Source of the DNA: Deltaproteobacteria bacterium | Lineage (GTDB): Bacteria > Desulfobacterota > Deferrimicrobia > Deferrimicrobiales > Deferrimicrobiaceae | Length of the DNA: 53,861 nt | Direction: 5' to 3' | Assembly (NCBI GenBank): GCA_016219515.1 | Contig: JACRMU010000004.1 | Span: forward strand, 1-53,861 | Part shown: one piece after another, positions 35,976 to 53,861 of the stretch | Layout: each line of letters starts with the position of its first letter | Numbering within the stretch: the first letter of the stretch is position 1 | Position numbers and translations under genes: made by a program | The notes under the pieces: model-generated | Database searches by the model: none | What the model was told of the DNA's origin: nothing | The model's input: only the letters and a program-made list of their open reading frames with translations

Positions 35976-37447
35976 TTGCACATCCGCGACATCCTGGCCC
36001 GGAACGCCCGGATCTATCCCGAACGCGTCGCCCTCGCCATGGGACGGGAAACCGTCACCTACCGGGAGCTGGCGGTCCGCGTGGCGCGGCGCGCATCGGA
36101 ACTGAAGGCCCAGGGCATCGGGAAAGGCGACCGGATCGCGGTCCTGATGCGCAACTCCCCCCTGTATGTGGAATTGCTGTACGCGATCACCTGCACCGGG
36201 GCCGTGATGCTGCCGCTCAACGAACAGCTGATCGCCCGGGAGCTTTCGGAGATCCTTCGCCACGCGGACGCCAAGGCCGTGCTTTTCTCCGAGGAGTTCC
36301 GCCGCGTGGCCGACCGGGTTCATGCCGGCCTGGCCTCCGATACCCGCTTCGTCGCCGTGGATGCGCAGCCCGCGGGAGCCGGATCCGGGGAGAAGGAGCC
36401 CGTTTGCTTCGGACTCCCGGCGGATGCCGCACCCTTTTCGGAATCCGACATCGCTCTCGTGGTCTACACCGGCGGCGTCTCCGGAACCCCCCGGGGGGCG
36501 ATGCTGTCCCACAGGAACCTGTCGGCCGCTTCCGCCTCCGCGGCGATGGAGCTCGGCCTGTCCCGCAACGACGTGTACCTCTCCTGCACGCCGCTGCCGT
36601 TCATGGCCGGGACGGGACGCCTGCTCCGGTTTCAGTACCTGGGGGGAACGGTCGTCATCCTGCCGGACTTCGAACCCGACCGGATGCATCCCGGTTCAAC
36701 CTCGCAACCCTGCGCATGGTCCTCTATGGCGGAACGGCGGTCCCCATCGAGCTGCAGAAACGGGCGATCCGGTTCTTCCGGTGCGGGCTGGTCCAGGCGT
36801 ATGGAATGGTCGAATCGGCGGGAATCCTGACATTCCTGCATCCCGAAGACCACTCCCTGGAGGAGAGCGCCCCCTACATGAGGAAGCTGATGTCGGTGGG
36901 CAAGGAGGCGATCGGGGTCGAGGTCCGGGTCGTCGACGAGGAGGGCGGGCAGATCTCCCCCCATCAGGTGGGCGAGATCGTCGCGCGCGGCCCGAACGTC
37001 TTCGAGGGGTATTTCCGCGACCCGGCGTACACCGCGTACGTGTTGCGGAACGGGTGGCTCTACACCGGCGACGTGGCTTCCGTGGACGAGGACGGGTACA
37101 TCTACATCGTCGACCGGAAGCGGGACTCGCTATCGGTCGGCGGGATCTGGGTCTATCCCCGGGAAATCGAGAACGTCATCGCGGAGCATCCCGCCGTGAA
37201 GGAGGCGGCCGTGATCGGGCGGTCCGACTATCTCCTGGGAGAGGTCCCCGTCGCCGTCGTCGCCCTGAAGGAGGGGGTGAAGGCCGACCCCGCCGACATC
37301 CTCTCCCATTGCCGGGACAACATGGCTCCCTTCAAGGTTCCCCGGTCGGTGGAGTTCATCTCCTCCCTTCCCAGGAACAGCCAGGGAAAGGTCCTGAAGG
37401 TGAAACTGAAGGAAAAAGCGGTTTCCGGGGCCAGCCCGCATTTCTAA
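35976..37447 (+). pseudogene. AMP-dependent acyl-CoA synthetase/ligase, disrupted (internal deletion plus frame change near 36683)
   Basis: TTG start behind GGAGG. The N-terminal part (frame of 35976) has VVYTGGVSGTPRGAMLSHRNL and reads sensibly to ..ILPDFEPDR. The family continues in the frame of ORF 36404..37447 from ..SRFNLATLRMVLYGGTAVP through YGMVESAG, WLYTGDVASVDEDGYIYIVDRKRD and PRNSQGKVLK. Confidence 0.75.
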
Positions 37448-41328: not shown

Positions 41329-42549
41329 TCAGGTGTTGTATCCCGCTTCTCCGTGCTGCGAAAGGTCCAGCCCCATGATCTCGTTCTCGGCCCCCACGCG
41401 AAGCCCCATGACCTTGTCCAGGACCTTCAACAGGCCATAGCTCACGACGAAGGAGTAGACGAGGATCGTCCCCGCCGCCAGCGCCTGGATGGCGAGCAGT
41501 TTGGGATTGCCGTAGAGCAAGCCGTTCGCGCCCCCGGCGTTGACCGCCGTCGTGGCGAACAGCCCCGTGGCCAGGGTGCCGAGCGTCCCTCCCACGCAGT
41601 GGACGCCGACGACGTCCAGCGAATCGTCGTAGCCAAGCCTCCCTTTCATCATCACGGCGACGTAGCAGACGAGGCCCGCCGTCAGGCCGATGGCGAGGGC
41701 GGCTGCCGGCTGCACGAACCCGGAAGCCGGGGTGATCGTGCCGAGCCCCGCGATGCACCCCGAAGCCGCGCCGAGCACGGTCGGCTTCCCGCGGTGGAAC
41801 CATTCGACGAACACCCAGGAAAGCGTCGCGGCGGCCGCGGCCATATGGGTGTTGACGAAGGCGCTCGTGGAGAGATCGCCTGCCGCAAGGGCGCTCCCCG
41901 CGTTGAACCCGAACCAGCCGAACCAGAGGATCGCCGCGCCGAGAACCGTCATGGGAAGGTTGTGCGGGGCCATGTTTTCCATGCCGAACCCCTTCCGCTT
42001 CCCCACGGCGATAGCGGCCGCGAGGGCGCTGACCCCCGCGGTGATGTGGACCACCGTGCCGCCGGCGAAATCCAGCACCCCCAGGTTGCGCAGCCATCCG
42101 CCGGTGCCCCATACCCAATGGGCGACGGGGTTGTAGACCAACAACGCCCACAAAAGAGTGAACACGAGATACGTGGAAAACTTGAACCGCTCGGCGAACG
42201 CGCCGCTGATCAGCGCCGGGGTGATGACCGCGAACATCATCTGGTAGATCATGAACGCCTGGTGGGGAACGGTGGCGGCGTACTCCTTGAAGGGAGCAAG
42301 CCCCACGCCGTTCAGCGCGAACCAGGAGAGGTCGCCGATCACGCCGCCGCAGTCGGGACCGAAGGAGAAGCTGTACCCGACGAGCATCCATTCCACGCTG
42401 ATCAATCCGAGTACGATAAACGACTGCATGACGGTACCCAGGATGTTCTTCTGCCGGACCATTCCACCATAGAAGAGCGCCAACCCGGGGGTCATGAGCA
42501 TGACGAGCGCTGCGGAGACGAGCAGCCAGGCGGTGTCGCCGGTGTTCAT
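41329..42549 (-). CDS. amtB: ammonium transporter (Amt family), copy 1
   Basis: ORF 41329..42606 trimmed to ATG 42549 (MNTGDTAWLLVSAALVMLMTPGLALFYGG). Amt signatures DFAGGTVVHITAG, WFGWFGFNAGS and VGVHCVGGTLG. Confidence 0.95.
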   Translation of the reverse strand: MNTGDTAWLLVSAALVMLMTPGLALFYGGMVRQKNILGTVMQSFIVLGLISVEWMLVGYSFSFGPDCGGVIGDLSWFALNGVGLAPFKEYAATVPHQAFMIYQMMFAVITPALISGAFAERFKFSTYLVFTLLWALLVYNPVAHWVWGTGGWLRNLGVLDFAGGTVVHITAGVSALAAAIAVGKRKGFGMENMAPHNLPMTVLGAAILWFGWFGFNAGSALAAGDLSTSAFVNTHMAAAAATLSWVFVEWFHRGKPTVLGAASGCIAGLGTITPASGFVQPAAALAIGLTAGLVCYVAVMMKGRLGYDDSLDVVGVHCVGGTLGTLATGLFATTAVNAGGANGLLYGNPKLLAIQALAAGTILVYSFVVSYGLLKVLDKVMGLRVGAENEIMGLDLSQHGEAGYNT

Positions 42550-42602
42550 ACCGATATCCTCCTCCAGCCGAGGTGATGTGGGGCCGATGGCCGAAAGGAA
42601 GC

Positions 42603-42617
42603 GCAATCCTCATGCCG
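42603..42617 (-). promoter_or_regulatory. sigma-54 (-24/-12) promoter candidate for amt copy 1
   Basis: The minus strand reads cGGCAT-GAGGA-TTGC, with correct GG-N10-GC spacing. It sits about 54 nt upstream of the ATG. An AT-rich tract and the 12-nt palindrome GACGTATACGTC lie further upstream. Confidence 0.6.
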
Positions 42618-42788
42618 GGGACAAACCCAAGGATTTTGAAGGAGATTCGCGGAACGGACGAGAGGGAAGACAGACGTATACGTCTTTATGGTAACATTTA
42701 TGAATAATTATTTACATAAAAGTACGACTACGGGAGACACCCCCGCACCGTGGAACCACCCGGCGCCCAACCCGTCGTCAAGTGAAAC

Positions 42789-42818
42789 GGGGGCGCCGGG
42801 ACAGGTCCCGGCGCCCCC
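42789..42818 (-). terminator. hairpin terminator candidate after amt copy 2
   Basis: A perfect 14-bp stem, GGGGGCGCCGGGAC / GTCCCGGCGCCCCC, with a 2-nt loop. It lies 64 nt past the amt copy 2 stop. On the transcribed strand it is followed by GTTTCACTT, a weak U-tract. Confidence 0.5.
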
Positions 42819-42881
42819 CCTCCGAAAGGCATGGTCGGCCCCATCACCTCCCCGGAGGACCCGTGGGCGTCCCGATGGACG

Positions 42882-44102
42882 CTACCAGTTGTAACCCGCC
42901 TCCCCGTGCACCGAAAGGTCGAGGCCCTGGATTTCGTCCTCCTTCGCGACCCGGAGCCCCATGGTCTTGTCGAGCACCTTCAGCAGCAGGAAGGTGACGG
43001 TGAAGGAGTATGCGAGGGTGACGACGACCGCCAGGGCCTGGATGGCGAGCAGCTTCGGGTTTCCGTAGAGCAAGCCGTTGGCGCCCCCGGCGTTGACCGC
43101 CGTCGTGGCGAACACTCCCGTCGCCAGCGCTCCGAGCGTGCCTCCCACGCAGTGGACGCCGACGACGTCCAGCGAATCGTCGTAGCCGAACTTCCCCTTC
43201 ATCATCACCGCGCCGTAGCAGACCGCGCCCGCCAGCAGGCCGATGGCGAGGGCTCCCATCGGCTGCACGAACCCCGCCGCGGGGGTGATCCCCACCAGGC
43301 CCGCGACGCACCCGGAGGCGGCGCCGAGCACGGTCGGCTTCCCGCGGTGGATCCACTCCGCGAACACCCAGGAAAGCGTCGCCATCGCCGCCGCCGAGTG
43401 GGTATTGACGAACGCGCTGGTGGCCAGGTCGCCCGCCGCAAGAGCGCTCCCCGCGTTGAACCCGAACCAGCCGAACCAGAGGATCGCCGCGCCGAGAACC
43501 GTCATGGGAAGGTTGTGCGGGGACATGTTGTCGGTTCCGAACCCCTTCCGCTTCCCGATGACGAGCGCCGCCGCGAGGGCGCTGACCCCCGAAGTGATGT
43601 GGACCACCGTGCCGCCGGCGAAGTCCAGCGCTCCCAGGTTGCGGATCCATCCGCCGATCCCCCACACCCAGTGGGCGACGGGGTTGTAGACCAGAAGGGC
43701 CCATAAAAGGGTGAACACGAGGAAGGTGGAAAACTTGAACCGCTCGGCGAACGCCCCGGTGATCAGCGCCGGGGTGATGACCGCGAACATCATCTGGTAG
43801 ATCATGAATGCCTGGTGGGGGACGGTGGCGGCGTAGTCCTTGAAGGGGGCAAGCCCCACGCCGTTCAGCGCGAACCAGGAGAGGTCGCCGATGATCCCGC
43901 CCCGGTCCGGCCCGAAGGAGAAGCTGTATCCGACGAGGATCCACTCCACGCTGATCAGCCCCAGGATGATGAAGGACTGCATGATCGTCCCCAGGATGTT
44001 CTTCCTTCTGACCATTCCTCCGTAGAAGAGCGCCAACCCCGGGGTCATGAGCATGACGAGCGCTGCGGAGACGAGCAGCCACGCCGTGTCGCCGGTATTC
44101 AT
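42882..44102 (-). CDS. amtB: ammonium transporter (Amt family), copy 2
   Basis: ORF 42882..44141 trimmed to ATG 44102. Also 406 aa and collinear with copy 1 without indels. Confidence 0.95.
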   Translation of the reverse strand: MNTGDTAWLLVSAALVMLMTPGLALFYGGMVRRKNILGTIMQSFIILGLISVEWILVGYSFSFGPDRGGIIGDLSWFALNGVGLAPFKDYAATVPHQAFMIYQMMFAVITPALITGAFAERFKFSTFLVFTLLWALLVYNPVAHWVWGIGGWIRNLGALDFAGGTVVHITSGVSALAAALVIGKRKGFGTDNMSPHNLPMTVLGAAILWFGWFGFNAGSALAAGDLATSAFVNTHSAAAMATLSWVFAEWIHRGKPTVLGAASGCVAGLVGITPAAGFVQPMGALAIGLLAGAVCYGAVMMKGKFGYDDSLDVVGVHCVGGTLGALATGVFATTAVNAGGANGLLYGNPKLLAIQALAVVVTLAYSFTVTFLLLKVLDKTMGLRVAKEDEIQGLDLSVHGEAGYNW

Positions 44103-44150
44103 GGGAAACCTCCTCGCTTCCAGGTGATGTGCCGACCGCATCGGAAGAGG

Positions 44151-44165
44151 GCAACCGCCGTGCCA
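44151..44165 (-). promoter_or_regulatory. sigma-54 (-24/-12) promoter for amt copy 2
   Basis: The minus strand reads TGGCAC-GGCGG-TTGC, a full match to the TGGCAC-N5-TTGC consensus. It sits about 49 nt upstream of the ATG. Confidence 0.75.
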
Positions 44166-44513
44166 ATCCTCTCTCCGCGTTATTCCCGGGGATTTCCCTC
44201 ATGTCCGCCGAATGACAGCAACACTATTGTCGCAAACACGACATTTACCGTTCTCCGCGCACCATCGGGATTTCCGGCGATCCGTGGGCCGGAACCTTCT
44301 CGCCCGATGGATTCGCGGGACATCGCAATCCCCCGAGGCGCAAGCGGGACCGTTTCTTGCGGATGGGATGCCGCCGAGCCCTTCGCTGTTTCTGACCCGG
44401 TCCCGGCGGATGCCGGGAAGGGTGCGCCCGATTTCCCTTGGTATGGAAGAAACGCATGCATTACAATTTTTCATGCGACAAACGACCTCCGTTTCTTCCC
44501 GCAAGGAGCCGCG

Positions 44514-46634
44514 ATGACCGAATCGTTCCACTCTTCCTGCATACAGGGGGCGAAAAGCGTCCTCTCCCTGGCCCGGGCATCCTTGTCCCACCAGCTCGCC
44601 GGGCGGGGAGGAAGCGCCCATCTCGGATACCCCGACACGGCGTACGAACTGCCGGTCGCGTTCGGCCTGACGGACCTGAAAGTGTCGACGCTCGCCGACG
44701 GGGAGAAGGTCCTCGATCTCGCGGAAGGGCTCCTTCGCAACGCTCCCACCCTGGAGAACGCTCTCGAGGCCGGCGCCGCCACCCTGCTGGCCGCCGACGT
44801 GCTCGGAGCTCTCTCCCACAAGGACGGGAACCCCTTTTCGCCGCCGTCGGTCGGGTTCGTCCCCGACTCCATCCTGCGCAAGCTGGGCATCTTCATGGTG
44901 GACGGAACCGTGCCGGGAGTCGCGGTGGCGATCGGCAGGGCCACCGACCCGGCGGCCGCCGCCGCCATGGTCCGCCAGTTCCAGGAAATCGGCCTCCTCG
45001 TCTTCCTGGCGGGGGACGTGGCCCAGCAGATGGAGAAGGCCGGCGTGAAGCTGGGAGACGATTTCAAGACGTTTCCGCTGGGCCCCCTCCCCGCGGTCAT
45101 CCACGCCGTCAATTTCGCCGTCCGGGCGGGCCTCACCTTCGGCGGCATCGGCCGCGGCCAGACGCAGGCGATGTACAACTATCTCTCCCAGCGGGTGAAG
45201 GCGTTCGTCTGCGCGCTGGGCCCCATGGACGAGATCGGGCTGGCGGTGATCGCGGGGGCGATGAAGGCCGGATTCCCGGTCCTTGCCGACCGGAACCTTC
45301 CGGAGATCCCCGGCGCGCTCCTGCGGAGCCCCGCGGGCGAGGAGATGGTCCGGGCCGGGATGGAGGCAAGAGGGATCAAGGCGAAGATCGTCAAGGTCCC
45401 CATCCCCATCGCGTTCGGGCCCGCCTACGAAGGCGAGCGGATCCGGAAATCGGACACCTACGCCGAGTTCGGCGGAGGCCGCGGGCCCGCCTACGAGCTG
45501 GTCGTTTCCGCCCCCCTTTCCGAGGTGCGGGACAAGGAGATCGTCGTCGTCGGCCCCGACATCCCCGATATGCCGAAGGGCGGGACGCTGCCGCTGGGGA
45601 TCGTCGTCACGGTCTCCGGGAACCGGATGCAGAAGGATTTCGAATCGGTGCTGGAGCAGCGCATCCACCGGATCGTTAACTACGGGGAAGGGACGATGCA
45701 CGTGGCCCCGCGGGACACCACATGGATCCGCGTCTCCTGCGAGGCGCAAGCCAAGGGGTTCCGGCTGGCGGACCTGGGGATGATGCTCTACGCCAAGATG
45801 CACGCCGACTTCGAGAACATCGTCGACCGGGTGTCCGTCACGATCCACACCCGCGAGGAGGACGTGCAGCGGGGGATGGCGTTCGCCAAGACCGTCTACG
45901 CCGAGCGCGACGCGCGGGCGAAAACGCTGACGGACGACACCGTCGAGGAGTTCTACTCCTGCACCCTGTGCCAGTCGTTCGCTCCGAACCACGTCTGCAT
46001 CGTCGCCCCCGAGCGGCTGGGGCTGTGCGGCGCGATCAACTGGCTCGACGGGAAGGCGGGCTACGAGATCACCCCCACCGGGCCGAACCAGCCGGTGATG
46101 AAGGGCGCGGTCCTCGACCCCGTGAAAGGCGCCTGGGACGGCGTGAACGCATTCGTCCGCGAGCACTCCCGGAACACGGTCCCGGGATTCAACCTCTACT
46201 CGATCATGGACGCTCCGATGACCTCCTGCGGCTGCTTCGAATGCATCCTCGCCCTGATCCCGGAGGCCAACGGCGTGATGGCGGTCAACCGGGAGTTCGA
46301 AGGAAGCGAAACGCCGTGCGGGATGGGGTTCTCCACGCTGGCCGGCTCGGTCGGAGGAGGGGCCCAGACACCGGGGTTCATGGGGGTGGGAAAGCATTAC
46401 CTTCTCAGCAAGAGGTTCCTCGCCGCAGAGGGCGGCCTCCCCCGCCTCGTCTGGATGACGAAAGAGATGAAGGAGTACCTGGGAGCGGACCTTGCCGCCC
46501 GGGCCGCCGAGATCGGCATGCCCGGCCTCGTCGACATGATCGCGGACGAAACGGTCGCGGTCACCCCCGAGCAGCTGCTCCTGCACCTGAAGAAAGTGGG
46601 GCACCCGGCGCTTTCGATGCCGCCGCTGTTATGA
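44514..46634 (+). CDS. acsB: acetyl-CoA synthase (CO-methylating; A-cluster subunit)
   Basis: This is the last 706 codons of track ORF 43815..46634, starting at ATG 44514 behind AAGGAG. GYPDTAYELPV near the N-terminus. A-cluster ligands SCTLCQSFAPNHVCIVAPERLGLCGAINWLDGKAG and the Cys-Gly-Cys Ni site MTSCGCFECI. Confidence 0.95.
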   Translation: MTESFHSSCIQGAKSVLSLARASLSHQLAGRGGSAHLGYPDTAYELPVAFGLTDLKVSTLADGEKVLDLAEGLLRNAPTLENALEAGAATLLAADVLGALSHKDGNPFSPPSVGFVPDSILRKLGIFMVDGTVPGVAVAIGRATDPAAAAAMVRQFQEIGLLVFLAGDVAQQMEKAGVKLGDDFKTFPLGPLPAVIHAVNFAVRAGLTFGGIGRGQTQAMYNYLSQRVKAFVCALGPMDEIGLAVIAGAMKAGFPVLADRNLPEIPGALLRSPAGEEMVRAGMEARGIKAKIVKVPIPIAFGPAYEGERIRKSDTYAEFGGGRGPAYELVVSAPLSEVRDKEIVVVGPDIPDMPKGGTLPLGIVVTVSGNRMQKDFESVLEQRIHRIVNYGEGTMHVAPRDTTWIRVSCEAQAKGFRLADLGMMLYAKMHADFENIVDRVSVTIHTREEDVQRGMAFAKTVYAERDARAKTLTDDTVEEFYSCTLCQSFAPNHVCIVAPERLGLCGAINWLDGKAGYEITPTGPNQPVMKGAVLDPVKGAWDGVNAFVREHSRNTVPGFNLYSIMDAPMTSCGCFECILALIPEANGVMAVNREFEGSETPCGMGFSTLAGSVGGGAQTPGFMGVGKHYLLSKRFLAAEGGLPRLVWMTKEMKEYLGADLAARAAEIGMPGLVDMIADETVAVTPEQLLLHLKKVGHPALSMPPLL

Positions 46635-47551
46635 CCGTCCCGCTACCGAAGCAGGCGTACCCCGGCCGCATCCTCCCCGTGACGCTTCCCGCCGGCCCGG
46701 GGGGAACGCCCGTGACCGTGGGCGGACAGAACGCCCTCTCCCTCGCACCGGAAGGAGAAAAGCCCAATGCCGCGGCCATCGGGATGGAGGTCCGGACGGG
46801 CGGAGGCGATCTCCCGCCGGCCCTGGCGAAGGCGTTCGAATGCAGGGCGACGGACCCGGTTTCTCTTGCGGGGGCGTGCGCGAACGACTGGGGGGCGCAG
46901 TTCCTTTTCCTCTCCCTCGACGGCTGCCATCCGGACGGCGGCGGTCAACCGGTGGAGGAAGGGGCAAGGATCGTCCATGAGGTCCTCGCCGCCGTCTCCT
47001 GCCCGGTGATCGTGGGCGGTTGCGGCGAGGAAGAAACCGACGCGAAGCTCTTCCCGGCCGTCGCGGAAAGCGCAGGCCGTCCCGTCTTCCTCTCGTACGC
47101 CGACGAAAAGAATTACCGCCTGGTGGGCGGCGCGGCCCTGGCGTACGGGCACGGGGTCGTCGCCTGGTCCCCGATCGACATCAACATGGCCAAGCAGGCG
47201 AACCTTCTCCTGTCGGACCTCGGGGTCCCCCCGGAAAGGATCCTCATCGATCCGCTGACCGGCGGGCTCGGATACGGCCTGGAGTACACCTACTCGATCG
47301 TCGAGCGGATCCGGCTGGCGGGGCTCTCGGGCGATGCCATGCTGGCGCGTCCCGTGTTGTGCCACCTCGGGGATGCGTGGAAGGCGCGGGAGGCGGTCGA
47401 CGCCTCCGAAACTTCCTGGGGGGACGCGGTCCTCCGCGGCCGCCGGTGGGAAGAAACCACCGGGTGGGCCTGCCTCGCCGCGGGCGCGGATCTCCTGGTA
47501 TTCCGGCACCCCGGGAACGTCGAGGCCTTCCGGGAGGCGGCGTGGCGCTGA
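46631..47551 (+). CDS. acsD: corrinoid iron-sulfur protein small subunit
   Basis: 306 codons. ATG overlaps the acsB stop (ATGA). TIM-barrel CFeSP small-subunit character (IDINMAKQANLLLSDLGVPPERILIDPLTGGLGYGLEYTYS). Confidence 0.88.
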   Translation: MTVPLPKQAYPGRILPVTLPAGPGGTPVTVGGQNALSLAPEGEKPNAAAIGMEVRTGGGDLPPALAKAFECRATDPVSLAGACANDWGAQFLFLSLDGCHPDGGGQPVEEGARIVHEVLAAVSCPVIVGGCGEEETDAKLFPAVAESAGRPVFLSYADEKNYRLVGGAALAYGHGVVAWSPIDINMAKQANLLLSDLGVPPERILIDPLTGGLGYGLEYTYSIVERIRLAGLSGDAMLARPVLCHLGDAWKAREAVDASETSWGDAVLRGRRWEETTGWACLAAGADLLVFRHPGNVEAFREAAWR

Positions 47552-48894
47552 CCGCCCTGGATATTTACAAGCTGCTCCCCAAGACCAACTGCAAGGACTG
47601 CGGCTTCCCCACCTGCCTCGCGTTCGCGATGCAGATGGCGGCGGGAAAGGCGGGGATCGACAAGTGCCCCCCCGCGTCCGAGGAGGCGAAGGCGGCGCTC
47701 GGGGCGGCCTCCGCTCCGCCGCTCCCCCGCATCGTCGTCGGCACCGGGGACCGCGCCGTCACCCTGGGCGACGAAGTGGTGCTGTTCCGCCACGAAAAGA
47801 CCTTTTACCACCCGACGGCGATCGCGATCTCGGTCTCCGACGCGCTCGGCGACGAGGCGCTCGAGGAGCGCCTGCGGAGCATCTCCGCCCTTTCCTTCGA
47901 GCGCGTGGGCCAGATCCTCGCGGTCGACATGGTCGCGGTCCGCTTCGACTCGGGCGATCCCGCGAGGTTCGCGAAAACCGCCTCCGCTTCGCTTGCGCGG
48001 TGCGGAAAGCCGCTCCTGCTCTCGGGGACGTGCGCGGCCCTTGCTGCGGCCATCCGGGAAGTGGGGGCCTCGCGTCCGCTCCTCCGCCCGCCGCCCGGGG
48101 AAACGGCGGCCGGTGCAGCGCTTGCCGCCGCAGAAAAACTCCCCCTCGCGGTTTCCGCCCGGGGGATCGAGGGGCTTGCCGCCGCGCTTGCGGCCGCGCG
48201 CGCCGCGGGGGCGACGGAGCTCGTCGCCGATCCGAAGCCCGCCGATGCGGCCGTCGCCGTCGCCGACTCCATCTTCATCCGGCGGCTCGCCATCGTCCAC
48301 CGGGCGCAGGAGATCGCCTACCCCACGGCGTTCGACCTCGGGCAGGGGTTCCCCCGGCCCTTCGAGGCCGCCTGCCTGCTCCTGTCGAAGTACGCGTCGC
48401 TCCTCGTGCTCGACACCGCGGACCCGGCGGAGATCTTCCCGCTGCTGACGCTGCGCCAGAACCTTTTCACCGACCCGCAGCGGCCGATCCAGGTGGATCC
48501 GGGAATCTACCCCATCGGAAAGATTTCCCCTTCCTCCCCCGTCCTCATCACCACCAATTTCTCCCTGACCTACTTCACGGTCCGCAGCGACGTGGAGGCG
48601 GCGAAGACCCCTGCCTACCTGCTGATCGCCGAGTGCGACGGGATGTCGGTCCTGACCGCATGGGCGGCGGGAAAGTTCACTTCCGAGAGCATCGCGGCGC
48701 TGCTGGCCGAAAGCGGAATCTCCGGAAAGGTGGATCACCGCACGCTCATCCTCCCCGGGATGGTGGCGCGCCTCTCCGGGAAGATCGAGGAGCTCTCGCA
48801 ATGGCGCGTCCTCGTGGGGCCGCAGGAGTCCTCCGCACTGCCCTCCTACCTCCGGCGGCTGCCGCCCGCCGCGTTCGTTCCCGTACATGGGTGA
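47542..48894 (+). CDS. acsC: corrinoid iron-sulfur protein large subunit
   Basis: GTG 47542 sits behind GGGAGG and overlaps acsD by 10 nt. N-terminal 4Fe-4S motif LTALDIYKLLPKTNCKDCGFPTCLAFAMQMAAGKAGIDKCP. C-terminal corrinoid-binding region (AECDGMSVLTAWAAGKF). Confidence 0.9.
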   Translation: MALTALDIYKLLPKTNCKDCGFPTCLAFAMQMAAGKAGIDKCPPASEEAKAALGAASAPPLPRIVVGTGDRAVTLGDEVVLFRHEKTFYHPTAIAISVSDALGDEALEERLRSISALSFERVGQILAVDMVAVRFDSGDPARFAKTASASLARCGKPLLLSGTCAALAAAIREVGASRPLLRPPPGETAAGAALAAAEKLPLAVSARGIEGLAAALAAARAAGATELVADPKPADAAVAVADSIFIRRLAIVHRAQEIAYPTAFDLGQGFPRPFEAACLLLSKYASLLVLDTADPAEIFPLLTLRQNLFTDPQRPIQVDPGIYPIGKISPSSPVLITTNFSLTYFTVRSDVEAAKTPAYLLIAECDGMSVLTAWAAGKFTSESIAALLAESGISGKVDHRTLILPGMVARLSGKIEELSQWRVLVGPQESSALPSYLRRLPPAAFVPVHG

Positions 48895-50464
48895 CCCGGG
48901 AAAAGGCATCCTGCGCTTCCTCCCGGAAAGCGCGTCCGTGCGCCTCTCTCCGGGAGACACGGTCCTGGCCCACGCCATCCGCTCCCTTTCCCCGGAAGAC
49001 CTTCGCGCGGGGATCCGGCTTGCCTGCCGCTGCCTCCCGCTGGAAGGGGAGGTCGCCGTCACCGTCCTCCCGGAGAGCCGCCCCGCCCGCCTGTCCGCTT
49101 ACATCGAGGGGAAGGAAATGGCGGAAGACGGCCCGTTCCTCCCCCTGCACGTCGTCCCCCGAAAGGGGATTCCGCTGGGCGCGGCCCTGGACGCGGGGAC
49201 CAGCACGCTGGCGGGGGCGCTCATCGACCTGCGGAACGGGTCGGTCCTCGCCCGGACCGCGGCCGACAACCCGCAGATGGCCTGCGGGGAGGACCTGATC
49301 TCCCGGATCGTCTTCGGAGAGGAGAACCCCGACGGGTTTCCCCTCCTGCGCAACCTCCTCCTGACGGGGATCGAGCAGGTGATTTCCGGCCTGGTCCGCT
49401 CCTCTTCCGTGGAAGGGGAGATCGTCGAAGTCTCCGCCGCGGGAAACACGGTCATCTCCCACATCCTTTACGGCCTGTCCCCCTCGCCGGTGCGCCGGCC
49501 GCCCCACCGGCCGGTCCTCAAGGAGTATCCCGTGAAAACGGGGAAGGACCTCGGCATCGTTTCCGCGCCGTCCGCCCGGTTCCGGATCTTCCCCTCCATC
49601 GGCGGGTTCGTCGGAGGGGACATCGTTTCCGGGATCCTGGCCTCCGGGATGCACCGGGAAGAGGCCGTGACCCTTCTGTACGACGTGGGGACCAACGGCG
49701 AGGTGGTGCTGGGCAACCGGGAGTTCCGGATCGCCTGCTCCTCGTCCGCCGGCCCCGCATTCGAGGGGGGAGAAGTGGCGTGCGGGATGCGCGCCTATCC
49801 CGGGGCGATCGAATCGGTCCGCATCGATCCCGTGCGCCTTACGGCCGAATGGACCGTGATCGGCGGAGGGAAACCGGCCGGAGTGTGCGGCTCGGGGATC
49901 CTCGACCTGTGCGCGGAGCTGTTCCGGGCCGGGCTGATCGACCGCGCCGGCCGATTCGTCCCCCGCGGGAGAGCCCCCTTCCGGGAGACGGACCGGGGGA
50001 CGGCGTTCGTCGTCGTCCGCGCGGAGCGGAGCGCCACCGGAGCGGACATCGTCTTCACGGCATCCGACCTGAAAAGCGTCGTACGGACCAAGGCCGCGCT
50101 GTGCGCCGCCGCCGATGCCCTCCTCCGGGCAGTGGGGCTTCCGCGGGACAAGGTGGAACGGGTCTGCATCGCGGGAGGATTCGGCAACTTCCTCGACCTG
50201 CGGTCCGCGCAGACGCTCGGGGTCTTCCCGCCCTTTCCGATGAAAAAGTTCGTTCTCCTGGGCAACGCGTCGCTGGCGGGCGCGATCGGAGCGATTCGCA
50301 ACCGGAAGCGGTGGGAGGAGGCGTGCACGCTCTGCTCCTCCACCGACTATCACGACCTTTCCTCCGACCAGGGGTTCATGGAGCTTTACCAGCGCGCGCT
50401 TTTCATCCCGCACACGGACGCCGAGAGCTATCGCGGAAATCCCCTGCCGGAGACGGCCACGTGA
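48887..50464 (+). CDS. RACo-like ASKHA ATPase (reductive activator of corrinoid Fe-S protein) lacking the 2Fe-2S Cys motif
   Basis: 525 aa. ATG overlaps acsC by 8 nt. ASKHA phosphate and adenosine motifs LDAGTSTLAG, YDVGTNGEVVLG and IAGGFGNFLD. The N-terminal ~60 aa keep only ..RLACRC of the ferredoxin domain. Confidence 0.85.
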   Translation: MGDPGKGILRFLPESASVRLSPGDTVLAHAIRSLSPEDLRAGIRLACRCLPLEGEVAVTVLPESRPARLSAYIEGKEMAEDGPFLPLHVVPRKGIPLGAALDAGTSTLAGALIDLRNGSVLARTAADNPQMACGEDLISRIVFGEENPDGFPLLRNLLLTGIEQVISGLVRSSSVEGEIVEVSAAGNTVISHILYGLSPSPVRRPPHRPVLKEYPVKTGKDLGIVSAPSARFRIFPSIGGFVGGDIVSGILASGMHREEAVTLLYDVGTNGEVVLGNREFRIACSSSAGPAFEGGEVACGMRAYPGAIESVRIDPVRLTAEWTVIGGGKPAGVCGSGILDLCAELFRAGLIDRAGRFVPRGRAPFRETDRGTAFVVVRAERSATGADIVFTASDLKSVVRTKAALCAAADALLRAVGLPRDKVERVCIAGGFGNFLDLRSAQTLGVFPPFPMKKFVLLGNASLAGAIGAIRNRKRWEEACTLCSSTDYHDLSSDQGFMELYQRALFIPHTDAESYRGNPLPETAT

Positions 50465-51501
50465 AAAACGATCTTCCCCCGTTCCTTCCCACGGGCGTCG
50501 GCAGCCTGCCGCACACCGATCCGGAGGCCGCGGTGCGGCTGGTCCTTTCGGCCTTCCGCGACGTCCCCTGCTGGCCCCAGCTCCCCCGCAGGACCTTTCT
50601 CGAAACCATGTACATCCAGTACGCGGCGGGGCTGCCGGGGGCGGTCATCGACGGGGAGAAGCTCTTTGTCGATGGAGGGGAAACCGTCCAGGAGGATGCG
50701 GAGGCCTTCTACGAACGGTTCCTCATGGAAGATGCCTCCTCCTTCGCGATCTCCACGGAGCGCGCGGCGGGGCTATACGCCCTCCTCTCCTCCGGGAAGG
50801 GGCCGTATCCCGCCGTCAAGGGACAGGTCACGGGCCCCGTCTCCTTCGGCCTGATGACCACCGACCGGGGGAAGAAGCCGCTCTTCTACGATCCGATGGG
50901 CCGGGACATCCTGGTAAAACACCTTCTGCGGGTCGCCCAGTGGCAGGTTGCGGAGCTTTCGCGCCTCTCGCCCAACGTCATCCTGGTGCTGGACGAGCCG
51001 TATCTCGCATCGGTGGGGTCCGCCATCCTCTCCCTCGCGAAGGAGGAGGTGATCGGCTGCCTCGACGAGATCTTCGACGGCCTGCCGGGGACGCGGTGCG
51101 GAATCCACTGCTGCGCGAACACCGATTGGGGGCTCGTCCTCTCCTCGCGGGTGGAATACCTCTCCTTCGACGCCTACGAGTACGCGGACTCCCTGCTGCT
51201 GTATCCGAAGGAGGTGAAGGCGTTCCTCGGCCGCGGGGGGAAGCTCGCCTTCGGGATCGTCCCCACGTCCGCGCAAGGGATCCGCGCGGAGACCCCGGAG
51301 ACGCTGGCGGCCCGGATGGATGCGATCCTCGGGAAATTCGAATCGCGCGGGATCGGACGCGATGCGGTCATCCGCGCAACCCTCCTCACTCCCGCCTGCG
51401 GACTGGGCACCCTTCCCGTGGAGGATGCGGAGCGGGCGATCCTTCTGACCGCCGAGCTCTCCGACCTCCTGCGGCATCGCCACGGAGCGGCCGCGGGATG
51501 A
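50461..51501 (+). CDS. MetE-C-terminal-like (core-MetE type) Zn methyltransferase
   Basis: 346 codons. GTG overlaps the upstream stop (GTGA). VILVLDEPYLASVG (cf. IQIDEPAL). Zn-ligand pattern GIHCCAN (His-x-Cys) and LLTPACGLG (cf. PDCGL). No second (folate-binding) MetE repeat. Confidence 0.7.
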   Translation: MKNDLPPFLPTGVGSLPHTDPEAAVRLVLSAFRDVPCWPQLPRRTFLETMYIQYAAGLPGAVIDGEKLFVDGGETVQEDAEAFYERFLMEDASSFAISTERAAGLYALLSSGKGPYPAVKGQVTGPVSFGLMTTDRGKKPLFYDPMGRDILVKHLLRVAQWQVAELSRLSPNVILVLDEPYLASVGSAILSLAKEEVIGCLDEIFDGLPGTRCGIHCCANTDWGLVLSSRVEYLSFDAYEYADSLLLYPKEVKAFLGRGGKLAFGIVPTSAQGIRAETPETLAARMDAILGKFESRGIGRDAVIRATLLTPACGLGTLPVEDAERAILLTAELSDLLRHRHGAAAG

Positions 51502-52247
51502 GCCTTCTGATCGCCGTCGCGGGAAAGGGGGGGGTGGGAAAGACCACCTGCTCCGCGCTCCTGCTGCGCGCGCTGCTCGCTTCCGGGGTCCGCCCGCTGC
51601 TGGCGGTGGACGCCGACCCCAACGCCAATCTCCACGTGCTCCTGGGGTTCCCGTCCCCGAAGGGGCTGGGATCGGTCCGCGAAGAGCTCCTGGAGGGGCC
51701 CGGCGGAGCGGCCTCCAAGGAAGAGCTCCTCGAGGCGATGGTCCAGCAACGGGTCGTGGAAGGGAACGACGTCGACCTCATCGCGATGGGCCGGGGCGAG
51801 GGGCCTGGCTGCTACTGCTTCGTGAACAACCTCCTGCGCCGGTCTCTTTCGCGGCTCGCGGGAGGATACGCCGCGGTCGTCGTCGACAACGAGGCCGGGA
51901 TGGAGCACCTCTCCCGGCGCAACCTGCGCAGGATCGACCACCTGGTCCTGGTCGCCGACCCTTCCCCGCGGGGGATGTCCGCCGCCTGCGCCATCCGGGA
52001 TCTTGCCGCGGACCTGTCCCTTCCCGTCGGAAAGAGCTGGCTCCTGCTGAACCGGCCGTACTCCGCGGGCGACGGCGGGGATGCGCCGTCCCTTCCCTTC
52101 CCCCTGCTCGCCGCGATCCCGCACGACCCGTCCCTGCCGGCCTGGGAGGCGGACGGCCGCTCTTTCCTCGACCTGGGGGACGGCTCTCCGGCCGCTTCCT
52201 GCATGGCCGGCGCGATCCGCAACCTCCTTGCCGGGAAGGCGCGATGA
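51498..52247 (+). CDS. cooC: CooC/AcsF-type Ni-insertion accessory ATPase
   Basis: 249 aa. ATGA overlap with the upstream gene. Deviant Walker A AGKGGVGKTT and the CxC metal motif GPGCYCF. Confidence 0.9.
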   Translation: MSLLIAVAGKGGVGKTTCSALLLRALLASGVRPLLAVDADPNANLHVLLGFPSPKGLGSVREELLEGPGGAASKEELLEAMVQQRVVEGNDVDLIAMGRGEGPGCYCFVNNLLRRSLSRLAGGYAAVVVDNEAGMEHLSRRNLRRIDHLVLVADPSPRGMSAACAIRDLAADLSLPVGKSWLLLNRPYSAGDGGDAPSLPFPLLAAIPHDPSLPAWEADGRSFLDLGDGSPAASCMAGAIRNLLAGKAR

Positions 52248-52921
52248 AGATTCTCTTCTCGGTGCAGGGACGATACGGGGAGCGGATCGCGGAAAATGTC
52301 CGCGCGAACGGACCGGCGGGCTGGGAAACCTCGGTGCTCAAGCTCCCCGCGCGCCTCCCTCTCGTGATCGACGACCCGGAGGAGATCCTTCCCGGCGCTT
52401 TGCCCGCGGCGGACCTGCTGGTTTCCCTCCACGAGAGCCCGGGGGCTGCCGAGCTGATCCCCGACATCGCCGCGCGGTGCGGCGCCCGGGCCGTCCTGGC
52501 CGCCGTGGACGACCGGACCGTCTGCCCGACGGGCCTGGAGAACCAGGTCCGGAAGCGGCTCGCCGCCATGGGAGTCGCGAACGCCTTCCCGCGCCCGCTC
52601 TGCGGGTTCGACGGCGGGCCGGACCCGCTGCTCCGCGAATTCGCGGCGAACTTCGGCCGGCCGAAGTTCCGGATCGCGCGGGACGGCGACCGCGTGGCGT
52701 CCGTGGAAGTGCTGCGGGACGCCCCGTGCGGATCGGCGAAGTTCGTCGCCTCCATCCTCGAGGGGGTCCGTGTCCCGGAGGCGTCCGATACCGGCGCGCT
52801 GCGCCACCACCATCATCCCTGCCTGGCGTCGATGGAGATCGACCCCGACCTGCAGGACACGATCCTGCACCTGTCCGGATACATCGTCCGCGCCGCGATC
52901 AAGTCGGCATTGAAGGAATAA
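52244..52921 (+). CDS. DUF166-family protein (annotated in some archaea as putative thymidylate synthase)
   Basis: 225 aa. ATGA overlap with cooC. Starts MKILFSVQGRYGERIAENV. Five Cys (CGARA, VCPTG, LCGFD, PCGSA, HPCLAS) and an HHHH run. The family assignment is from memory of DUF166 N-termini. Confidence 0.65.
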   Translation: MKILFSVQGRYGERIAENVRANGPAGWETSVLKLPARLPLVIDDPEEILPGALPAADLLVSLHESPGAAELIPDIAARCGARAVLAAVDDRTVCPTGLENQVRKRLAAMGVANAFPRPLCGFDGGPDPLLREFAANFGRPKFRIARDGDRVASVEVLRDAPCGSAKFVASILEGVRVPEASDTGALRHHHHPCLASMEIDPDLQDTILHLSGYIVRAAIKSALKE

Positions 52922-52935
52922 AGAGGAAAGCCCTT

Positions 52936-53861
52936 CTACGCTATTTCCCGGGAACGGTCGAGGACTTCCCGCACCATGCGGGTCAGCTTGTCTGCGCGGT
53001 ACGGCTTGGGCAGGAACGCGGACGCCCGCGAGGTACCCCTCGACGCGTGCCCGCTGGAGAGAATCACCTTCGCGTGCGGGTCCAGCGTGCGAATGCGGGC
53101 CAGGACCTCGGTCCCCGACAGGTGCGGCATCGTCAGGTCCAGGATCACGAGGTCGATCCGGTCCCGCAGATCGAGGTAGAGGTCGATCGCCTGCTGGCCG
53201 TCGACCGCGGTCACGACGGAATATCCATGGACCTCCAGGACCTGCTGCGCGAGGCTCCGGATCATCTCCTCGTCGTCCACGAGGAGGATCGTCTCCTTCC
53301 ACGTTCTCATCCTGGCCGCTTCCGGACTCTGGAGCTTTTCCTCTTCCGCCTTTTCTTCCGCCCGGGGCAGGTACGCATGGAACGTCGTCCCCTTCCCCGG
53401 CTGGCTCTCGAGATTGACCCATCCCTCGTGCTGCTTGATGATGCCGTACACCGTGGAAAGCCCGAGCCCGGTGCCCCGCCCCAGCTTCTTCGTGGTGAAG
53501 AACGGCTCGAACACCCGGCGCTGCGTCGCCTCGTCCATCCCCGTCCCGTTGTCGGAAATCGACACGACGACGAAATCCCCCTTGCGCGCGTACGGGTACT
53601 CCCTTCGGTACTCGTCCCCGACGGAGGCATTTCTCGTGACGACCTGTATCCGGTATCCTCCGGGAGGCGGATCGTCCTTGTGTCCTCCCTCCAGGCGCTC
53701 CATGATCGCGTCCCTGGCGTTCACGCAGAGGTTCATCATCACCTGGTGCATCTGGTTGGGGTCGGCCACGGCATGCCACAAACCGTTCGAGGAGCAGATC
53801 TCCATCTCGATCCGCCGGTCGATGGTTTGCGCGAACAGGTCCACGCCCTCCCTCCCCACCT
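52936..53861 (-). CDS. hybrid sensor histidine kinase / response regulator (C-terminal part; 5' end beyond the window)
   Basis: The frame is open to the window edge. HATPase boxes MNLCVNARDAI, DNGTGMD and GTGLGLS. REC domain ILLVDDEEMI..ILDLTMPHLSG..LPKP. Confidence 0.85.
   Translation of the reverse strand, partial: VGREGVDLFAQTIDRRIEMEICSSNGLWHAVADPNQMHQVMMNLCVNARDAIMERLEGGHKDDPPPGGYRIQVVTRNASVGDEYRREYPYARKGDFVVVSISDNGTGMDEATQRRVFEPFFTTKKLGRGTGLGLSTVYGIIKQHEGWVNLESQPGKGTTFHAYLPRAEEKAEEEKLQSPEAARMRTWKETILLVDDEEMIRSLAQQVLEVHGYSVVTAVDGQQAIDLYLDLRDRIDLVILDLTMPHLSGTEVLARIRTLDPHAKVILSSGHASRGTSRASAFLPKPYRADKLTRMVREVLDRSREIA

Follow-up and report, generated by a model that had tools for sequence, protein, structure and literature searches.

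Introduction

Dehalococcoides mccartyi strain CBDB1 encodes a 343-amino-acid core-MetE (cbdbA481, DET0516 type) that uses methylcob(III)alamin, but not methyl-tetrahydrofolate (methyl-THF), to methylate homocysteine (Deobald et al. 2020, PMC7005905), and that fails to complement an Escherichia coli metE mutant (PMC7005905). Because its KM for free methylcob(III)alamin is approximately 240 µM, Deobald et al. proposed the corrinoid iron-sulfur protein (CFeSP) in its methylated form, charged through acetyl-CoA cleavage by AcsB, as the donor (PMC7005905); direct methyl transfer from the CFeSP to core-MetE, or MesB, was likewise proposed by Price et al. (2021, PMC7857596). The latter study defined the MesB family by a similarity of at least 130 bits to the D. 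mccartyi enzyme, by His-Cys-Asp-Cys (HCDC) zinc ligands and by the presence of AcsC/AcsD, and it cited co-occurrence as support, AcsC or AcsD being encoded in 123 of the 123 proteomes that contain MesB (PMC7857596). Operons of mesB with acsCD occur in some methanogens, as far as the text accompanying Fig 3B of that study describes them, and the methionine methyl group of D. mccartyi comes from C2 of acetate according to PMC7005905 and PMC7857596. The present study concerns a gene of this type, here called mesB, located at positions 50461-51501 (+ strand) of contig JACRMU010000004.1 from a groundwater member of the Deferrimicrobiaceae (assembly GCA_016219515.1); the whole analysed stretch of 53,861 nucleotides is referred to as the 54-kb window.

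Our reading, to which we assign a probability of roughly two in three, is that mesB encodes a MesB methionine synthase that takes its methyl group from the CFeSP of the surrounding acs operon, independently of folate, with acetyl-CoA synthase (ACS) operating in the cleavage direction. Of this reading, the demonstrated part is that the protein belongs to the MesB family, retains the zinc- and homocysteine-binding residues, is predicted to have a MetE-like fold and lacks a folate-binding half, and that the operon is conserved; the CFeSP as physiological donor, the cleavage direction of ACS and the folate independence in this genome we infer. The mesB family and the mechanistic idea are already known, and the contribution of this locus is the genetic linkage in a bacterium.

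Identification and family assignment of mesB

The mesB open reading frame (ORF) comprises 346 codons from a GTG start at 50461 to a TGA stop at 51501. A first-pass annotation of this DNA, made from the sequence alone, had described an ORF of this length coupled to both neighbours, and both junctions read as it described: GTG 50461-50463 overlaps TGA 50462-50464 of the upstream RACo/AcsV gene (GTGA), and TGA 51499-51501 overlaps ATG 51498-51500 of the downstream cooC-like gene (ATGA). The three motifs that it had singled out were also located where it had placed them, namely DEPYL at residues 178-182 (50992-51006), GIHCCAN at residues 214-220 (51100-51120) and PACGLG at residues 311-316 (51391-51408). 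The GC fractions at the three codon positions are 0.69/0.47/0.86, with third-position GC (GC3, 0.86) contrasting with second-position GC (GC2, 0.47) as in the adjoining genes. More than 1352 protein homologues were found, mostly of approximately 345 amino acids, the closest of which originate from metagenome-assembled genomes (MAGs) of Deferrimicrobiaceae or 'Deltaproteobacteria' and carry the labels 'methionine synthase' or 'hypothetical'; among 1.84 billion cluster representatives at 50% identity, 2728 clusters match the mesB profile, 605 of them below 1e-30 and nearly all of them approximately 345 amino acids long. Additionally, public runs of groundwater metagenomes contain the mesB DNA on independent contigs with zero differences. 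Because of the GC3/GC2 pattern, the number of homologues and the identical copies in independent runs, the mesB ORF is a genuine gene; its reading as a chance ORF was rejected on the coding-like GC3, the many homologues of the same length and the identical independent contigs.

As the characterised reference, a D. mccartyi-type cbdbA481 ORF was recovered from a metagenome contig (L082) through the forward cloning primer given in the supplementary material of Deobald et al. (PMC7005905), which the contig matches exactly. The published reverse primer matches this ORF with one synonymous mismatch, and the encoded protein of 343 amino acids begins with MTKTDF, ends with KHGTV and has His122, His215, Cys217, Asp236 and Cys312 as published; on its contig the ORF adjoins ahcY, MTAP and mtnA. 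A search seeded with a Dehalococcoidaceae orthologue contained no protein named D. mccartyi among the matches listed. Over 335 residues, interrupted by one gap of one residue, the mesB protein is 43% identical to the reference (BLASTP, 287 bits, E 4e-100), and its phmmer score of 308 bits lies above the 130-bit criterion for MesB. The three defining features of Price et al. were thus all found in mesB, namely the similarity, the zinc ligands and, encoded in the same operon, both AcsC and AcsD. By sequence, the mesB product is a member of the MesB/core-MetE family, in agreement with the first-pass description of a single-barrel, core-MetE-like zinc methyltransferase, to which the 287 and 308 bits to the characterised type, the zinc ligands and the MetE-like predicted fold all point.

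The only Pfam model to respond to the mesB protein was Meth_synt_2, at a sub-threshold level (E 0.16, 11.6 bits versus a cutoff of 21, residues 213-327), and neither Meth_synt_1 nor a pterin-binding domain was matched, nor was URO-D even at E <= 1. Across the family, Meth_synt_2 was weakly matched by 8 of 37 diverse members (best 2.5e-5), and a search of the PDB sequences with phmmer and two family profiles returned nothing relevant. In the profile comparison of Meth_synt_2 with the UroD/MtaA families that had been suggested earlier, no UroD/MtaA match appeared and Meth_synt_2 stayed below threshold. Taken alone, such a comparison would look negative because of the sub-threshold Meth_synt_2 score, and sequence profiles by themselves would have given the protein no assignment; the question was decided by the similarity to the characterised homologue.

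Active site and predicted fold

The zinc ligands of the mesB protein are placed by alignment at His216 (51106-51108), Cys218 (51112-51114), Asp237 (51169-51171) and Cys313 (51397-51399), all on the + strand. They align with the zinc ligands modelled for the D. mccartyi core-MetE, His215, Cys217, Asp236 and Cys312 (PMC7005905), with a numbering offset of exactly one after residue 210. An hhalign comparison with E. coli MetE pairs the DEP motif with D599-E-P, His216 and Cys218 with His641 and Cys643, Asp237 with Glu665, and Cys313 with Cys726. The equivalents of the homocysteine-binding residues are, again by alignment on the + strand, Ser15 (50503-50505) and Asp178 (50992-50994); Ser15 lies in GVGSLPH, which aligns with GSMPH of the D. 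mccartyi-type enzyme, and its equivalence to MetE Ser433 is taken from Price et al. (PMC7857596). Within 383 family members all six positions are strongly conserved (His216 in 382, Cys218 in 380, Asp237 in 383, Cys313 in 379, Ser15 in 370 and Asp178 in 380).

An AlphaFold2 model built with 20 homologues predicts a single (beta/alpha)8 barrel (pLDDT 83.8, pTM 0.86). Among solved structures, Foldseek matched it best to the catalytic C-terminal barrels of three MetE enzymes, those of Candida, Thermotoga and Streptococcus (E 2e-8 to 1e-4, TM approximately 0.6, 13-17% identity), followed by MesD (3rpd), an MtaA-like methyltransferase (4ay7, E 1e-6) and UroD (2inf); eleven MetE/MesD structures are placed ahead of 4ay7 and 2inf. 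The structure prediction that the first-pass annotation had called for is accordingly a MetE-like barrel with a predicted zinc site and no folate-binding repeat, and on two of the points by which that annotation could have failed, the best fold match is to a methyltransferase (MetE) and the zinc ligands are present in the alignment. With 346 amino acids, no Meth_synt_1 match and one barrel, the mesB protein lacks a folate-binding half, and the genes flanking mesB are RACo and cooC, not one for the N-terminal half of MetE.

Three other enzyme classes were considered and rejected. A canonical or split MetE disagrees with the length of 346 amino acids, the missing Meth_synt_1, the Meth_synt_2 score of 11.6 versus 21 bits and the replacement of Glu665 by Asp237; membership in the UroD/MtaA family disagrees with the absence of a URO-D match and with the ranking of MetE/MesD structures above 4ay7 and 2inf; and an AcsE analogue would be expected to have a pterin-binding barrel, of which the mesB protein has none.

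One residue departs from the D. mccartyi enzyme. Gln122 of the mesB protein (50824-50826, in KGQVTGP) stands where D. mccartyi has His122, which was proposed as the 'His-on' lower cobalt ligand within an HxxG motif said to be conserved in Dehalococcoidia (PMC7005905). Position 122 is Gln in 339 of the 383 family members and His in only 41, and a Dehalococcoidaceae MAG orthologue (L063) also has Gln. Since Gln prevails to this extent, a His122 lower ligand is not general to the MesB family; as judged from the alignment, the prevalence of Gln122 fits a protein-bound corrinoid as methyl donor.

The acs operon and its conservation

mesB is the fifth of seven genes in the order acsB-acsD-acsC-RACo-mesB-cooC-DUF166, all on the + strand, and all six junctions overlap by 4-10 nt. 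The first gene, acsB (44514..46634), encodes an acetyl-CoA synthase of 706 amino acids with the Pfam domains CODH_A_N, CdhC and ACS_CODH_B_C; it scores 736 bits to the C. hydrogenoformans ACS (7zkj_B), and its A-cluster motifs CTLCQSFAPNHVCIVAPERLGLCGA and SCGCFE are intact and aligned. The small CFeSP subunit is encoded by an acsD-like gene (46631..47551, Pfam CdhD), and the large subunit of approximately 450 amino acids by acsC (47542..48894, Pfam FeS and CdhD at full length, with an N-terminal 4Fe-4S domain), which starts at GTG 47542 or at a codon a few positions downstream. RACo/AcsV (48887..50464), an ATP-dependent reductive activator of the corrinoid protein with 525 amino acids in the window copy, matches RACo_middle, RACo_C_ter and the NCBIfam model AcsV, and scores 330 bits to 3zyy/4c1n. 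Downstream of mesB follow a cooC/acsF-like gene (51498..52247) for a P-loop nickel-insertion ATPase of 249 amino acids (Pfam CbiA/AAA_31/ArsA_ATPase, with a GKGGVGKT P-loop and a GPGCYCF CxC motif) and, coupled to it by an ATGA overlap, the last gene of the operon (52244..52921), whose product of 225 amino acids matches Pfam DUF166 (E 1.3e-47). The neighbours named in the first-pass annotation, a RACo-like gene and cooC, are thereby substantiated through the two RACo domains upstream and the P-loop/CxC protein downstream; the CFeSP that it placed two genes upstream is encoded two and three genes upstream. A sigma-70-like promoter match (TTGGTA-18-TACAAT, 44438..44467, + strand), which is a match to the consensus only, lies approximately 47 nt upstream of the acsB start and is the only one in 44100-53100.

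Domains of carbon monoxide dehydrogenase (CODH), AcsE (pterin-binding), MetF, Fhs and FolD were found in none of the scanned coding-like ORFs of the 54-kb window. Nine Deferrimicrobiaceae-type (MBNT15) loci with 66-79% identity were then drawn from a species-level genome collection together with ±8 kb of flanking DNA, and none of the same five (CODH, AcsE, MetF, Fhs, FolD) was present among their scanned flanking ORFs. The earlier statement that mesB sits where AcsE would be consequently holds only loosely: AcsE is missing from the operon, from the window and from ±8 kb of the nine related loci, and the statement extends to those regions.

The gene order acsB-acsD-acsC-RACo-mesB-cooC-DUF166 is kept in 9 of 9 of these loci as far as the contigs reach, as determined by tblastn of the window operon proteins, a comparison that informs only the gene order in the relatives. 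The cooC-like/DUF166 pair at the operon end is present in 8 of the 9, which is wherever the contig extends that far, and an independent contig of 6.4 kb covers the stretch from acsC to DUF166. In Methanococcus maripaludis, a CooC2 and DUF166 pair shows cofitness with CODH/ACS and is needed for CODH/ACS-dependent autotrophy (bioRxiv 10.1101/2024.03.05.583561); by analogy, DUF166 may serve as a factor for ACS maturation or for electron transfer in bacteria too.

Outside the Deferrimicrobiaceae, 71 loci (L009-L080, mostly Chloroflexota, 40-48% identity) were compared, and approximately 50 of them have mesB near ahcY, MTAP or mtnA, with ahcY within a few kb in 31, MTAP in 34 and mtnA in 43. Deobald et al. 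had been led to cbdbA481 by what they saw in a single operon (PMC7005905), and this neighbourhood widens their observation. Because the Chloroflexota orthologues adjoin ahcY, MTAP and mtnA, the family is tied to methionine and S-adenosylmethionine (SAM) metabolism. The two nearest representatives from outside the Deferrimicrobiaceae lie on short contigs with no informative gene context. CooC-like genes adjoin mesB in a few loci from MAGs of Anaerolineales, Elusimicrobiota and Thermoflexales (L059, 12-1660 and 9437-10123; L055, 9602-10198; L072, 10085-10867), one of which also has RACo. There are hints in these gene orders of more than one origin for a partial linkage between mesB and ACS accessory genes.

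Proposed pathway and alternatives

In the proposed pathway, AcsB would split acetyl-CoA into CoA, CO and a methyl group, and the methyl group would move to the cobalt of the AcsCD CFeSP. MesB would then dock on methyl-CFeSP and hand the methyl group to homocysteine without tetrahydrofolate, AcsE or MetF: the zinc held by His216, Cys218, Asp237 and Cys313 would activate the homocysteine thiol, and the resulting thiolate would take a methyl cation from the methyl-Co(III) corrinoid, leaving methionine and Co(I). Accidentally oxidised Co(II) would be re-reduced by RACo, and CooC and DUF166 would mature the Ni site of AcsB. The SAM-cycle context of the wider family and the CFeSP context of this operon together fit such a route from acetyl-CoA through CH3-CFeSP to methionine. 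The first-pass suggestion that the enzyme may accept its methyl group from the CFeSP of the operon coincides with the published hypothesis, and it is the operon context that argues for it here.

The alternative that holds up best, although we consider it unlikely, retains a MesB methionine synthase and assigns it another corrinoid protein or free methylcobalamin as donor, so that its placement among the acs genes would reflect co-regulation or historical accident. The characterised homologue does work in vitro with free methylcob(III)alamin (KM approximately 240 µM, PMC7005905), paralogues may use other corrinoid proteins according to Price et al. (PMC7857596), and approximately 70 Chloroflexota and other loci have mesB in positions not next to acsCD. 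However, this KM is far above plausible cellular levels of free methylcobalamin, as Deobald et al. argue (PMC7005905), the 54-kb window contains no corrinoid-protein gene besides those of the CFeSP, and mesB overlaps RACo and cooC two genes after acsC in an order shared by 9 of 9 loci of the lineage at 66-79% identity.

A thiol methyltransferase of the MT2 kind (like MtaA or MtsA), acting on a thiol other than homocysteine and either methylating it from the CFeSP or demethylating a methylthio compound to load the CFeSP, appears less probable still. A zinc H-x-C...C site is common to MT2 enzymes, Foldseek also returned the MtaA-like 4ay7 (E 1e-6) and UroD, and the equivalent of MetE Glu484 is not conserved in MesB (PMC7857596). 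Against this stand the 43% identity to an enzyme shown to use homocysteine, the retention of Ser and Asp at the positions binding the carboxyl and amino groups of homocysteine (S15 in 370 and D178 in 380 of 383), the clustering of orthologues with ahcY, MTAP and mtnA, the lack of a Pfam UroD/MtaA match and the higher rank of MetE structures over MtaA in the fold search. The weakest proposal, a non-homologous AcsE replacement that moves methyl groups between methyl-THF and the CFeSP, has in its favour that mesB fills the methyltransferase slot of an acs operon without acsE and that a CFeSP-to-THF step was what Zhuang et al. originally supposed for D. mccartyi (as recounted in PMC7005905), yet it is very improbable given a protein with neither a pterin-binding (AcsE/MetH-type) domain nor the N-terminal folate-binding half of MetE, a characterised homologue that makes no use of methyl-THF and fails to rescue an E. 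coli metE mutant (PMC7005905), and a conserved thiol-activating zinc site that would have no role in folate:corrinoid transfer.

Several observations weigh against a CFeSP-dependent MesB in this operon. A single characterised homologue, 43% identical, carries the family assignment, since Meth_synt_2 is sub-threshold and NCBIfam, in which the mesB protein had zero matches, has no model for it. In the predicted structure, residues 41-100 are modelled with less confidence, and no equivalent of MetE Glu484 could be aligned in the mesB protein. Most mesB family members outside the Deferrimicrobiaceae do not adjoin acs genes, and the acs-operon linkage is therefore lineage-specific. Transfer of a methyl group from the CFeSP to MesB has no experimental demonstration for any family member in the literature searched. 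Furthermore, no RNA run among the public runs searched contains mesB, and the co-transcription of the seven genes consequently rests on the overlapping frames and the single promoter-like match. Finally, if CODH, AcsE, MetF, MetH or MetE are encoded elsewhere, the acs operon may belong to an ordinary pathway in which MesB would form a side branch.

Neighbouring genes and differences from public-run contigs

Upstream of the operon, two tandem copies of an ammonium transporter gene (amt) are encoded divergently (41329-44141, - strand), and a sensor kinase lies downstream on the opposite strand; within the lineage, the genes on this side encode a hybrid sensor kinase of the PAS/HisKA type and a cbb3-type cytochrome oxidase. 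Similar flanks were found in the related loci, with amt on one side (L003, L005, L006) and sensor kinase and cbb3 oxidase genes on the other (L004, L005, L006). An oxygen-sensitive ACS/CFeSP system is thus encoded a few kb from a high-affinity oxidase.

The window differs from public-run contigs at two sites, neither of which touches mesB. At 48985/48986, within RACo, the window is without 99 nt (33 codons) that encode the [2Fe-2S] Cys loop (..LSPCGGEGRCGKCRV..) retained by four orthologues; contigs of three runs (X1, X2 and X5) carry 99-102 extra letters exactly at this point, and a fourth run (X3) has loose ends there that read GVPILSPCGG. A naturally defective RACo gene was rejected because the public runs carry the missing 99 nt. 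A second gap, of 82 nt at 36679/36680, splits a gene resembling an AMP-binding acyl/acetyl-CoA synthetase into ORFs at 35976-36830 and 36404-37447 in different frames; 82 extra letters were present at this position in 3 of 3 runs examined and would restore a single frame. Since the natural population carries both stretches, both deletions are probably assembly artefacts or rare variants.

Significance

The genomes of Candidatus Deferrimicrobium borealis and other MBNT15 members were described as being without formate-THF ligase and a complete CODH/ACS, and the pathway was called absent (PMC9386147); the supplements of the Candidatus Deferrimicrobium genome paper contain no mention of methionine synthase, methylenetetrahydrofolate reductase, carbon monoxide dehydrogenase, acetyl-CoA synthase, corrinoid or homocysteine. 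On the MesB reading, the ACS remnant of MBNT15 acquires a function. We tentatively suggest, at somewhat less than even odds, that the seven-gene unit is a self-contained module for the transfer of a methyl group from acetyl-CoA to methionine, and that the MBNT15/Deferrimicrobiaceae lineage kept ACS and CFeSP only as a folate-independent methyl supply, with the release of CO. Such a module would explain the 'incomplete Wood-Ljungdahl pathway' reported for MBNT15/Deferrimicrobium genomes, would make this the second lineage after the Dehalococcoidia with such a metabolism, and would be the first bacterial case with all parts in a single operon that could be transferred to a host.

Since 2020, the proposal of methyl transfer from the CFeSP to homocysteine has rested on phylogenetic co-occurrence and on the mesB-acsCD operons of some methanogens. 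A mesB that is translationally coupled with acsB, acsCD, the reductive activator and the Ni-maturation pair offers stronger genetic evidence as well as a compact, clonable system, and the literature searched contained no description of a bacterial seven-gene mesB operon or of its explanation of the MBNT15 gene set. In annotation pipelines the protein is named 'hypothetical' or, generically, 'methionine synthase', and no Pfam or NCBIfam model reaches it. The Deferrimicrobiaceae/MBNT15 lineage, to which the organism belongs, consists of respiratory bacteria, and genes for a cbb3 oxidase lie within a few kb of the operon.

Comparison with known systems

The tandem-repeat MetE (E. coli b3829, Meth_synt_1 and Meth_synt_2) shares with the mesB protein the barrel fold of its catalytic half, the DEP and H-x-C...C motifs and zinc-thiolate chemistry. 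Unlike this enzyme of approximately 750 amino acids, the mesB protein is about half the size, has no N-terminal folate-binding barrel and has Asp in place of Glu665; by analogy with the characterised systems, the donor would be a methyl-corrinoid for MesB, in contrast to methyl-THF-Glu3 for canonical MetE. AcsE and the MT2 enzymes (MtaA/MtbA/MtsA) dock on a corrinoid protein and move a methyl group to or from its cobalt, as MesB is proposed to do. The MT2 enzymes additionally share with MesB the thiol-activating zinc H-x-C...C site and a UroD/MetE-like barrel; however, they act on coenzyme M and give Pfam UroD matches, of which the mesB protein gives none, and AcsE, unlike the mesB protein, is a pterin-binding barrel without a zinc-thiol site.

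The closest likeness is to the MesB/core-MetE of D. mccartyi, with 346 versus 343 amino acids, the same His/Cys/Asp/Cys ligands, a single barrel and no folate-binding half; both organisms encode AcsB, AcsC and AcsD, and in both the CFeSP is the proposed donor. The window protein differs in having Gln122 in place of His122, and its gene stands between RACo and cooC, whereas in D. mccartyi and most Chloroflexota mesB lies with ahcY, MTAP and mtnA, away from acs. According to the accounts of Zhuang et al. (2014) given in PMC7005905 and PMC7857596, the Wood-Ljungdahl pathway of D. mccartyi is incomplete and methionine receives its methyl group from the cleavage of acetyl-CoA; the locus described here is similar in combining ACS, CFeSP and CooC with no CODH, AcsE or MetF nearby, an absence that is genome-wide in D. 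mccartyi by those accounts and that refers here to the operon, to the 54-kb window as a whole and to the ±8 kb retrieved around the loci of the relatives. As in the mesB-acsC-acsD operons of methanogens, in so far as Price et al. (2021, PMC7857596) describe them, mesB is physically linked to both CFeSP genes; unlike those archaeal mesB-acsCD operons as described there, the operon of the window is bacterial and contains the complete set of genes for methyl generation and upkeep, adding acsB, RACo, cooC and DUF166.

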